Shown here piece after piece: positions 7,967 through 20,821 of a stretch of DNA of 64,000 bases (position 1 is its first letter; each line of letters begins with the position of its first letter). The position numbers and the translations under genes are program-made. The notes beneath the pieces are model-generated. The model was not told the DNA's origin. It made no database searches and saw only the letters and a program-made list of their open reading frames with translations. Origin of the DNA: Escherichia coli (GTDB lineage: Bacteria > Pseudomonadota > Gammaproteobacteria > Enterobacterales > Enterobacteriaceae). The stretch lies in assembly GCF_003018255.1 (NCBI RefSeq), contig NZ_CP027440.1; one strand, 5' to 3'.

Positions 7967-10716
<2,750 letters not shown>

Positions 10717-10917
10717 TTATTTCGCATCCTCTTCGCAAACACAGTGCTGACAATTCAGCAGCCTGATATTAGGCACTCAACTAATACGCTGCTGACTCTG
10801 TCCTCAACACCAGATATTTTCCCTAACCCAATAGTGTATGAGAAAAGATTTAACGCTGATAAACTAATCCTTTATGGTTAGGAGAAAAAATAATGTGATT
10901 ATTCTGGGCTCTTAACA

Positions 10918-10931
10918 TTGATCGTTATCAA
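10918..10931. promoter_or_regulatory. FNR/CRP-type palindrome TTGAT-CGTT-ATCAA upstream of ydhY
   Basis: Perfect inverted repeat in the AT-rich ydhY-ydhZ intergenic region; the ydhY operon is known to be FNR-activated. Confidence 0.4.
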
Positions 10932-11171
10932 TTAAAATCACAAAGCAAGAAATTATAAGTGAACTGATATTTATTATCATTTGAAATAAATTTAACTTAA
11001 CCGACAATTATTTGTGAAGTTCATCGCAGAAAATAAAAATAACTTTATCGCTATAAATTAAAATACACACCGAAATTCGTATAATTTCAGCAGTTGTTAT
11101 TTAGAATGATTAACTGGACCGCAACTGAAGCAAGAATATCAGGATGAAGCTTACCGCCTCATCCTGAATGG

Positions 11172-11381
11172 TCATTTTACCAGTGCGTTAATGACGGTTT
11201 CCATCGCCTGCTTTTCCAGCTCACTGCGCTGAATGCGTTTATTGGCTAATGCTGTACGTAATACGCCTGCGATAACAATATGCTTTGGTTCCTGCCCCAG
11301 ATCGCGCATTTCCAGCACAACTTTACCGACAACTCTGCACATTTCTCGGTACAGTTCATCCTCTTTTGTCCGATTTCCCAT
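11172..11381 (-). CDS. fumD: Small protein, 69 aa (fumarase D / YdhZ)
   Basis: ORF 11172..11381 minus; sequence and position match YdhZ; hairpin caggatga...tcatcctg just downstream at about 11139-11165. Confidence 0.8.
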   Translation of the reverse strand: MGNRTKEDELYREMCRVVGKVVLEMRDLGQEPKHIVIAGVLRTALANKRIQRSELEKQAMETVINALVK

Positions 11382-11695
11382 TCTTTATACCTATTTATCA
11401 TGCCAACTATCAGCATATATCAATCTAACCAATTAAACAAAAATCAAACAAAATCAGACAAATAACGCGATAAATTATTTTAACTGTAGCAATTGAGCGA
11501 TGATGTATTTATACACCGGATGAACTTTCACTTATCTTCACAGTGACAACCCCGGCACCAGACGTTGCGCAAACAGCGAAGTTTTTGCGTAACCTTTTCC
11601 CTGGAACGTTAAATCTTTGATAACAATTTATTGTCTAACAAGTTGTATATTTTTTGAAACGCTGTTTTTGTTTTCCTTTTGGATTAATTTCAGCG

Positions 11696-11701
11696 TATAA
11701 T
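11696..11701 (+). promoter_or_regulatory. Candidate -10 hexamer (TATAAT) of a pykF promoter
   Basis: Consensus TATAAT about 240 nt upstream of the pykF ATG; no strong -35 seen. Confidence 0.35.
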
Positions 11702-11716
11702 GCGCGCCAATTGACT

Positions 11717-11732
11717 CTTGAATGGTTTCAGC
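11717..11732. promoter_or_regulatory. Cra (FruR)-like operator TGAATGGTTTCA downstream of the candidate pykF -10
   Basis: Match to Cra half-site pattern TGAA-N4-TTCA; pykF is a known Cra-repressed gene. Confidence 0.45.
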
Positions 11733-11937
11733 ACTTTGGACTGTAGAACTCAACGACTCAAAAACAGGCACTCACGTTGGGCTGAGACACAAGCACACAT
11801 TCCTCTGCACGCTTTTTCGATGTCACCTATCCTTAGAGCGAGGCACCACCACTTTCGTAATACCGGATTCGCTTTCCGGCAGTGCGCCCAGAAAGCAAGT
11901 TTCTCCCATCCTTCTCAACTTAAAGACTAAGACTGTC

Positions 11938-13350
11938 ATGAAAAAGACCAAAATTGTTTGCACCATCGGACCGAAAACCGAATCTGAAGAGATGTTAGCT
12001 AAAATGCTGGACGCTGGCATGAACGTTATGCGTCTGAACTTCTCTCATGGTGACTATGCAGAACACGGTCAGCGCATTCAGAATCTGCGCAACGTGATGA
12101 GCAAAACTGGTAAAACCGCCGCTATCCTGCTTGATACCAAAGGTCCGGAAATCCGCACCATGAAACTGGAAGGCGGTAACGACGTTTCTCTGAAAGCGGG
12201 TCAGACCTTTACTTTCACCACTGATAAATCTGTTATCGGCAACAGCGAAATGGTTGCGGTAACGTATGAAGGTTTCACTACTGACCTGTCTGTTGGCAAC
12301 ACCGTACTGGTTGACGATGGTCTCATCGGTATGGAAGTTACCGCCATTGAAGGTAACAAAGTTATCTGTAAAGTGCTGAACAACGGCGACCTGGGTGAAA
12401 ACAAAGGTGTGAACCTGCCTGGCGTTTCCATTGCCCTGCCAGCACTGGCTGAAAAAGACAAACAGGACCTGATCTTTGGTTGCGAACAAGGCGTAGACTT
12501 TGTTGCTGCTTCCTTTATTCGTAAGCGTTCTGACGTTATCGAAATCCGTGAGCACCTGAAAGCGCACGGCGGCGAAAACATCCACATCATCTCCAAAATC
12601 GAAAACCAGGAAGGCCTCAACAACTTCGACGAAATCCTCGAAGCCTCTGACGGCATCATGGTTGCGCGTGGCGACCTGGGTGTAGAAATCCCGGTAGAAG
12701 AAGTTATCTTCGCCCAGAAGATGATGATCGAAAAATGTATCCGTGCACGTAAAGTCGTTATCACTGCGACCCAGATGCTGGATTCCATGATTAAAAACCC
12801 ACGCCCGACTCGCGCAGAAGCCGGTGACGTTGCAAACGCCATCCTCGACGGTACTGACGCAGTGATGCTGTCTGGTGAATCCGCAAAAGGTAAATACCCG
12901 CTGGAAGCGGTTTCTATCATGGCGACCATCTGCGAACGTACCGACCGCGTGATGAACAGCCGTCTCGAGTTCAACAATGACAACCGTAAACTGCGCATTA
13001 CCGAAGCGGTATGCCGTGGTGCCGTTGAAACTGCTGAAAAACTGGATGCCCCGCTGATCGTGGTTGCTACCCAGGGCGGTAAATCTGCTCGCGCAGTACG
13101 TAAATACTTCCCGGATGCCACCATCCTGGCACTGACCACCAACGAAAAAACGGCTCATCAGTTGGTACTGAGCAAAGGCGTTGTGCCGCAGCTGGTTAAA
13201 GAGATCACTTCTACTGATGATTTCTACCGTCTGGGTAAAGAACTGGCTCTGCAGAGCGGTCTGGCACACAAAGGTGACGTCGTAGTTATGGTTTCTGGTG
13301 CACTGGTACCGAGCGGCACTACTAACACCGCATCTGTTCACGTCCTGTAA
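11938..13350 (+). CDS. pykF: Pyruvate kinase I, 470 aa
   Basis: Track ORF starts at 11722, but the ATG at 11938 gives the pyruvate kinase N-terminus [19 protein letters not shown]. Confidence 0.95.
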
Positions 13351-20626: not shown

Positions 20627-20672
20627 CGATTTACCTCACTTCATCGCTTTCAGCGTATAACAGCATGTTAGT

Positions 20673-20685
20673 GATAATGATTATC
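20673..20685. promoter_or_regulatory. Fur box GATAATGATTATC within the sufA promoter
   Basis: Sits in the spacer of a minus-strand TTGAAC-16 nt-TAACAT promoter about 50 nt upstream of sufA. Confidence 0.6.
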
Positions 20686-20804
20686 AGTTCAACCCAGCAA
20701 ACGCAGGGACTTTAGCGTAAAACATGCTTTTTACCTGCTTTTAATAAGCATAGACCCTGATGTGTGGGTTAACAGGCACGCTAAGAATTAGGTATCTCAT
20801 TGTT

Positions 20805-20821
20805 AGATAATGATTATTATC
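20805..20821. promoter_or_regulatory. Second Fur-box-like palindrome TAGATAATGATTATTATCTA
   Basis: Near-perfect inverted repeat about 180 nt upstream of sufA; function not assignable from sequence. Confidence 0.3.

Follow-up and report, generated by a model that had tools for sequence, protein, structure and literature searches.

The spacer between ydhY and fumD (formerly ydhZ) of Escherichia coli raises the question of how ydhY is transcribed when the most conspicuous regulatory site in its control region, a perfect FNR-type palindrome, lies about 200 nt upstream of the start codon. In the original prediction, made from the DNA letters of the 64-kb window (the whole stretch of DNA that was analysed), two alternatives were offered: either the palindrome is the activating FNR site and the operon has an unusually long leader, or a second promoter lies closer to the gene. 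Our analysis points clearly to the first. The palindrome TTGATCGTTATCAA is indeed a perfect TTGAT-N4-ATCAA repeat at 10918-10931, with its centre 208.5 nt upstream of the ydhY ATG, and it is, with high confidence, the known, single FNR site that activates PydhY, the class II FNR-dependent promoter of the ydhYVWXUT operon. The published position of this site at -42.5 leads to a start near 10882 and a leader of 166 nt, as set out below.

10090-10716, minus strand: ydhY, an open reading frame (ORF) with its ATG at 10716, for a ferredoxin-like protein (RefSeq annotation of matching records).
10918-10931, read on the minus strand: FNR box TTGATAACGATCAA, centred at -42.5, very probably the activating site of PydhY.
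10890-10895, minus strand: -10 hexamer CATTAT of PydhY, 22 nt past the last base of the FNR box, assigned from this geometry; conservation 0.93.
10882 (+/-1 nt), minus strand: ydhY transcription start, as inferred from the FNR box centre at 10924.5 minus the published 42.5.
10717-10882, minus strand: 5' untranslated leader of ydhYVWXUT, 166 nt (165 nt in K-12), which follows from the start position.

The FNR box matches the pattern at all 10 of 10 positions and is the sole exact TTGAT-N4-ATCAA in the window; shuffled versions of the window contained a mean of 0.12 perfect boxes, with at least one in 11 of 100. The corresponding K-12 box is found at NC_000913.3 1,754,678-1,754,691 and, with an offset between U00096.2 and U00096.3 that we take to be 1,976 bp at this place, its centre falls 20 bp from the published centre of the FNR peak. 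That peak, from chromatin immunoprecipitation followed by sequencing (ChIP-seq), is assigned to ydhYVWXUT and centred at 1,752,688, and the same study lists the operon among those that FNR activates directly (its Category 1, in Table 1, where Partridge et al. 2008, Microbiology 154:608, is cited for binding), places a single FNR motif at -42.5 from the known ydhY start (starts being taken from EcoCyc and Kim et al.) and reports that both sigma70 occupancy and expression increase anaerobically (Myers et al. 2013, PMC3688515). The presence of FNR at ydhY in vivo was also confirmed by independent ChIP with quantitative PCR (PMC2690998).

The window carries the same locus as that for which the -42.5 position, FNR ChIP and anaerobic induction were published in K-12. 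The FNR box, the -10 element and two of the sites described below, a Fur box and a NarL/NarP-type 7-2-7 site, are base for base the same as in K-12, with three base differences between the FNR box and the -10 element and a leader that is 1 nt longer. Under anoxia, a [4Fe-4S]-FNR dimer would occupy 10918-10931, centred 42.5 bp upstream of the start and overlapping the -35 region; bound FNR would recruit RNA polymerase to the -10 hexamer CATTAT (10895-10890), and transcription on the minus strand from near 10882 would yield the 166-nt leader followed by ydhY. The FNR site, its class II position and the FNR-dependent induction of ydhYVWXUT are already known, having been published between 2008 and 2013, and the FNR finding itself adds very little that is new. 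What has been obtained is a cross-genus map of the whole 455-bp control region, including three elements absent from the original prediction: the Fur box, the NarL/NarP-type site and a ModE-type operator. The last of these, together with the idea that Fur acts as an anti-silencer, constitutes a modest, testable addition to a characterised promoter.

The cross-genus comparison supports an FNR box that belongs to a fixed start point. A scan with the YdhY protein, using one genome per species, yielded 30 loci (162 kb) from Escherichia, Citrobacter, Leminorella, Limnobaculum and one metagenome-assembled genome labelled uncultured Raoultella; the E. albertii locus ends within ydhY and carries no upstream DNA. 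At the orthologous place, 26 of the 30 loci have a perfect FNR box, and the 162 kb contain no other; three more loci (Leminorella and two Limnobaculum species) have a box with one mismatch (TTGATAACGATCAC). In all loci listed, an nAnTAT hexamer follows exactly 22 nt past the FNR box, with GATTAT in Limnobaculum, while the distance from box to ATG ranges from 138 to 241 nt. Since the spacing to the -10 element is fixed and the distance to the ATG varies, the box appears to be tied to the start point rather than to the gene. Conservation across the spacer was expressed, column by column, as the fraction identical to the majority among 21 Escherichia and Citrobacter spacers, and was as follows.

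Fur-type box: 0.94-0.99, the most conserved columns of the spacer.
FNR box: 0.95.
-10 element: 0.93.
Block at +3 to +18: 0.88-0.95.
Leader block GGTTAGG: 0.90.
Ribosome-binding region (last ~45 nt of the leader): 0.98.

Citrobacter sp. NCU1 has two copies of ydhY, on contig_21 and contig_92 (query matches of 92% and 88%). The second copy (contig_92) has a perfect FNR box 198.5 nt from its ATG, a poor 7-2-7 site and no ModE-type box.

The FNR box is set in DNA that binds H-NS according to published data. The spacer is long, as predicted (10717-11171, exactly 455 bp from the ends of the flanking ORFs), and very AT-rich, with 33.4% GC overall and 26.1% in its core (10932-11138) against 49.4% for the window. 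It had also been described as having curved-DNA-like A-tracts typical of H-NS-bound DNA. This stands in substance, in that the spacer is H-NS-bound in published ChIP-on-microarray (ChIP-chip) data, but the A-tracts on which it was based do not hold up: the seven A/T runs of at least 4 nt compare with 7.4 +/- 2.4 in composition-matched shuffles, and they are irregularly spaced and unphased. The spacer is AT-rich but not demonstrably A-tract-rich. It is one of 78 'promoter islands' (1752593_318 ydhY/ydhZ), and was H-NS-bound in all three ChIP-chip studies compiled (PMC3661553); the island corresponds approximately to 10808-11126 of the window. The ydhY spacer is likewise marked G,K,O for H-NS in a study in which SlyA overproduction raised ydhYV-T 2.5-fold (PMC5797941). 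The AT-rich, H-NS-binding DNA of the spacer would act as a further input to PydhY.

Immediately upstream of the FNR box lies a predicted Fur site:

10965-10981, read on the minus strand: Fur box AATGATAATAAATATCA, centred at about -90.

At 10965-10979 this box matches the 7-1-7 motif TGATAATNATTATCA in 14 of 15 positions, and the window contains 5 matches with at most one mismatch where 0.24 are expected. The classical 19-bp Fur consensus was also tried; it is matched at 14 of 19 positions only, and the 7-1-7 reading fits much better. In strain CFT073 the centre of the box, at 1,910,872, is 18 bp from a published Fur ChIP-seq maximum at 1,910,890, with the FNR box 65 bp away. Fur ChIP-seq peaks have been reported at the ydhY promoter in both CFT073 and MG1655, and the accompanying expression ratios for ydhY are 0.07 for fur-/wild type (wt), 1 for ryhB-/wt and 0.11 for fur- ryhB-/wt (Banerjee et al. 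2020, PMC7157518, Table S1); on these ratios, the effect of Fur on ydhY is positive and independent of RyhB. The Fur-2 iModulon includes ydhY and ydhV.

A positive effect of this kind is familiar from ftnA. The two are alike in that Fur binds both ftn and ydhYVWXUT, with expression of each falling in the fur mutant independently of RyhB (0.16 and 0.07), and in that their Fur sites lie upstream of the core promoter, with H-NS on the ydhY spacer. They differ in the size of the Fur ChIP peak, which is small at ydhY (54.65) compared with that at ftn (1,065). At the ftnA promoter, Fe-Fur reportedly antagonises H-NS silencing, a result ascribed to the work of Nandal and colleagues in 2010, and the same role is proposed here for ydhY by analogy: Fe-Fur bound just upstream of FNR would act chiefly by countering silencing by H-NS. 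Elsewhere in the window, a perfect and a two-mismatch Fur 7-1-7 motif were observed at 20672-20686 and 20805-20819, about 130 bp apart, and include the best match of the window, upstream of suf genes. These motifs lie where the K-12 gene order would put the sufA promoter and were used informally as a positive control of the Fur pattern.

The nitrate/nitrite regulators repress at ydhY, and a candidate site for this was found directly downstream of the start:

10865-10880, read on the minus strand: NarL/NarP-type 7-2-7 site TAACCAT-AA-AGGATTA, at +3 to +18.

Its spacing is fixed in Escherichia and Citrobacter, at +52/+53 from the FNR centre, and the Limnobaculum version (TACCCACTTAGAGGTA, 13 of 14) is closer to consensus. 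No exact NarL heptamer is present in the 455-bp spacer. At +3 to +18, a bound regulator would block polymerase when nitrate or nitrite is present. The title of Partridge 2008 and Table 1 of PMC3141248 both name NarL/NarP as regulators of ydhYVWXUT.

The third addition to the control region lies furthest upstream:

11049-11072, read on the minus strand: ModE-type operator candidate CGGTGTGTA-TTTTAA-TTTATAGCG, with its centre at about -178.5, ~136 bp upstream of the FNR box.

For ModE of E. coli, the consensus quoted in PMC545781 is ATCGNTATATA-N6-TATATANCGAT, and 11049-11072 is the only match, with three mismatches, to the core pattern CGNTATATA-N6-TATATANCG in the 64 kb, where 0.18 are expected. 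Over the 16 specified core positions the window has three mismatches and K-12 has two; the left arm is CGGTGTGTA in the window, the same allele as in CFT073, and CGGTATGTA in K-12, with the K-12 site near 1,754,809-1,754,832. Known operators served as positive controls: in 27 kb of K-12 the core pattern picks out those of modA and moaA and nothing else, and in two 5-kb regions those of dmsA and napF alone. When these four classical K-12 operators are turned into a matrix, the ydhY site ranks first of 63,977 window positions at 16.8 bits, the next position scoring 12.5, and the K-12 allele reaches 19.1 bits; each true site, scored with itself omitted from the matrix, reaches 16.3-24.3.

The box is also conserved. 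At the orthologous place, 22 loci of Escherichia and Citrobacter carry it with 0-2 mismatches and one more with three, and despite the AT-rich setting the CG dinucleotides at its two ends do not vary among 25 distinct sequences (24 loci and the window). Information content amounts to 1.65 bits at the specified columns, 0.85 at the N columns and 0.65 in the flanks. Among the 23 matches to the ModE pattern in the 162 kb, 22 are at the orthologous place, and the 23rd is also in a ydhY upstream spacer, the 630-bp spacer of Limnobaculum allomyrinae, where the box (2032-2055 of its locus) has one mismatch. The distance from the box to the FNR centre is 136 bp in Escherichia and 143-149 bp in Citrobacter, which has ~10 extra bp between a conserved TCACA block and the Fur box (window ~10982-11012). 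As this extra spacing is close to one helical turn, the helix faces would be kept.

A molybdate sensor at PydhY makes biological sense because YdhV is a molybdenum enzyme with bis-Mo-molybdopterin (bis-Mo-MPT; Reschke et al. 2019, as described in PMC13328260); ydhYVWXUT encodes in YdhV the only known E. coli enzyme of this kind. Molybdate-bound ModE would add an input for the availability of the cofactor of YdhV, as at dmsA and napF. Like that of ydhY, the napF promoter is FNR-dependent, and its ModE operator, CGCTATATAAATATATTTATAACC, lies far upstream of the FNR site: ~210 bp separate it from the napF ATG, and it is centred near -133.5; there, unlike their repression at ydhY, the nitrate/nitrite regulators activate. 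The dmsABC operon likewise encodes a molybdoenzyme and has a single FNR site, in the class II position at -41.5, and a ModE operator, CGCTATATAGGCTTGTATACATCG, in the dmsA control region. The dmsA operator is located 74-97 bp upstream of the ATG, whereas the ydhY candidate is ~136 bp upstream of the FNR box. ModE action is experimentally established at dmsA according to the title of McNicholas et al. 1998, whereas the ydhY candidate is known from sequence and conservation alone. Repression of dmsABC by NarL is given in the title of Bearson et al. 2002.

Taken together, these observations allow a tentative reading, to which we give somewhat less than even odds of being right: that the box is a genuine and previously unreported ModE operator at about -178.5, so that PydhY would sense molybdate besides oxygen (FNR), nitrate/nitrite (NarL/NarP) and iron (Fur), and that Fur, and perhaps ModE, would relieve H-NS silencing of a horizontally acquired operon rather than contact RNA polymerase. 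If true, the operator would couple an orphan molybdoenzyme system, whose physiological role is unknown, to the supply of molybdate and, with the positive Fur effect and the coverage by H-NS, would make PydhY a convenient model for the action of combined metal and redox signals at a silenced promoter. As an element of the map, the ModE-type site is a modest addition and possibly an unreported one.

Several points weigh against the picture of PydhY given above. The ydhY start was assigned from K-12 geometry and has a pyrimidine at its predicted +1, so the FNR box may be centred at -41.5 rather than at -42.5; as a published 'promoter island', the region contains several promoter-like sites, and minor extra starts may occur. 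The 7-2-7 site agrees with TACYYMT-NN-AKRRGTA at 12 of 14 positions and is one of two window matches where 3.0 are expected, which is not significant alone; it is probably the site of nitrate/nitrite repression, its position at +3 to +18 having been inferred here. That Fur would be an anti-silencer at ydhY is proposed from the analogy with ftnA. Finally, no link between ModE and ydhY was found in the literature searched, which did not cover the ModE study by systematic evolution of ligands by exponential enrichment (SELEX).

The strongest competing explanation concerns the same box. The repeat CG-TATATA...TATATA-CG at 11049-11072 could be the site of another protein or an H-NS nucleation element instead of a ModE operator, which we regard as unlikely, though well worth keeping in mind. 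It would account for the three mismatches of the window allele, the large distance from the start and the missing literature link, as well as for an uneven distribution: neither C. sedlakii nor Leminorella has the box, nor does the second ydhY copy of Citrobacter sp. NCU1, and at the same place in L. eriocheiris (2028-2049 of its locus) CGTTATATATAACTTCATATCG has half-sites that are 2 bp closer. It fits poorly, however, with the recovery of exactly the four classical operators by pattern and matrix and a score for the ydhY site within their range, with conservation that tracks the ModE consensus column by column and leaves the spacer variable, and with the reappearance of a one-mismatch box in the ydhY spacer of a distant genus, in L. 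allomyrinae. A ModE operator is also favoured by YdhV being a molybdenum enzyme and by dmsA and napF, two further molybdoenzyme operons whose FNR-dependent promoters are accompanied by ModE sites.

Other blocks in the AT-rich tract bear on how many promoters serve ydhY:

11013-11028, read on the minus strand: CRP-like block TGCGA-N6-TCACA, centred at about -138.5, to which no regulator is assignable.
10980-10952, minus strand: promoter-like ATGATA-17-TATAAT, 10 of 12, upstream of the FNR box and with its -35 in the Fur box.
11018-10989, minus strand: promoter-like TTCACA-18-TAAATT, 9 of 12, overlapping the CRP-like block.

A CRP site at 11013-11028 was considered and not adopted: it has one mismatch to TGTGA-N6-TCACA, and the two matches in the window against 1.9 expected are not significant alone. 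The TCACA half of the block persists throughout Escherichia and Citrobacter and lies 40-41 bp downstream of the ModE-type box in every case. A further promoter-like sequence, TTAAAA-16-TATAAT (11058-11085, plus strand, 10 of 12), is directed antisense into fumD and away from ydhY, with its -35 inside the ModE-type box.

An additional upstream promoter directed toward ydhY from this tract, which would be compatible with an FNR-activated PydhY, is improbable. The two minus-strand matches (10 and 9 of 12) and the conserved TCACA block are what such a promoter might leave behind, and a preference of E-sigmaS over E-sigma70 for in vitro transcription of the cloned ydhY promoter region, together with rpoS-dependent expression in one medium (PMC3141248), would fit it. 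Promoter-like matches are not in excess, however (5 compared with 2.8 +/- 1.9 in shuffles), and the TATAAT of 10980-10952 is not kept, other species having TTTAAT or ATTAAT. In addition, a Fur-repressed upstream promoter would predict higher expression in the fur mutant, where expression is 14-fold lower, and promoter islands have been described as transcriptionally defective (PMC3661553).

It is much less probable still that ydhY is transcribed mainly from a second promoter nearer its ATG, the other alternative of the original prediction, with the palindrome as a remote or unrelated FNR site. The 208-nt distance from FNR box to ATG is unusual and a promoter island is rich in promoter-like signals, but no sigma70-like site is found on the minus strand between 10882 and 10717, the published -42.5 was counted from a known start, and the -10 element keeps its spacing from the box while the box-to-ATG distance varies from 138 to 241 nt, as expected if the box is tied to the start. 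A functionless chance match can practically be dismissed, for although TTGAT and ATCAA words are commoner in AT-rich, H-NS-coated DNA and a perfect site did arise in some window shuffles (11 of 100), the palindrome is conserved across four genera while adjoining bases vary, and published in vivo FNR occupancy and FNR-dependent expression contradict such a reading.

With the FNR-activated start near 10882 as the preferred origin of the transcript, the leader contains two further elements:

10727-10732, minus strand: Shine-Dalgarno sequence AGAGGA, 10 nt ahead of the ydhY ATG.
10822-10828, minus strand: leader block GGTTAGG, at +55 to +61, complementary to the first 7 nt of the transcript, CCTAACC.

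Leader length is 113-199 nt in Escherichia and Citrobacter and ~96-101 nt in Leminorella and Limnobaculum, and C. koseri has a leader without the middle ~70 nt. A long leader (about 96-199 nt in four genera) is a conserved property; an RNA structure is not. The leader folds no better than shuffled sequences (z-score -1.57), and its RNAalifold consensus, at -5.5 kcal/mol with one covarying pair, contains no conserved structure. A possible CCUAACC/GGUUAGG helix is 96% paired, with no covariation and with one pair broken in 5 of 20 sequences. The GGTTAGG block could form this RNA helix or represent a further DNA site; its complement CCTAACC overlaps the 7-2-7 site. Conservation of the leader at its 5' end is attributable to the 7-2-7 site and at its 3' end to the ribosome-binding region. 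Other roles for the leader were considered. For a riboswitch or known cis-regulatory RNA, a search of Rfam at E<=1 over 10000-12000 gave no match, the molybdenum cofactor (Moco) motif included; for a leader peptide, no ORF of at least 20 amino acids starts inside the leader on the minus strand; and as an attenuator, the hairpin at 10760-10745 has a weak 6-bp stem and a sequence that Citrobacter does not share.

On its upstream side, the control region is bounded by the neighbouring gene:

11172-11381, minus strand: fumD (formerly ydhZ), named from the RefSeq annotation of matching E. coli genomes.
11139-11167, minus strand: intrinsic-terminator-like hairpin of fumD (ydhZ), directly past the stop codon, with a 12-bp stem (6 G-C pairs) and the tail TATTCTTGCT.

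The position of this hairpin is kept in other Escherichia and Citrobacter, with arm sequences that differ in the alignment, and it is the upstream edge of the ydhY control region. Because the upstream fumD is co-directional and ends in a terminator, the FNR box can serve ydhY alone. The gene order beyond ydhY and fumD continues with ynhH, pykF and lpp (RefSeq annotation of matching records).

The stretch 10600-11300 is E. coli sequence with 100% identity to strain DETEC-S792 and 97.6% to K-12. It is matched in 5,425 of 5,426 complete E. coli genomes and covered to at least 80% in 5,390; coverage is below 80% in 35 of the 5,425 matching genomes, which suggests that a few strains have deletions or insertions at the ydhY promoter. 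In E. coli strain N25 (NZ_CM165897.1) the match is limited to the last 74 of 701 query bases, on the fumD side. Just upstream of pykF, an ORF of 70 codons (11718-11930, plus strand) has a position that fits YnhH (b4817), a small protein found in the annotations of K-12 and MC4100. The mechanical ORF of ydhV (7967-10153, minus strand) has 728 amino acids and overlaps the end of ydhY, compared with 700 amino acids and a start ~20 nt past the ydhY stop in the K-12 RefSeq annotation; the greater length probably comes merely from an in-frame upstream ATG.

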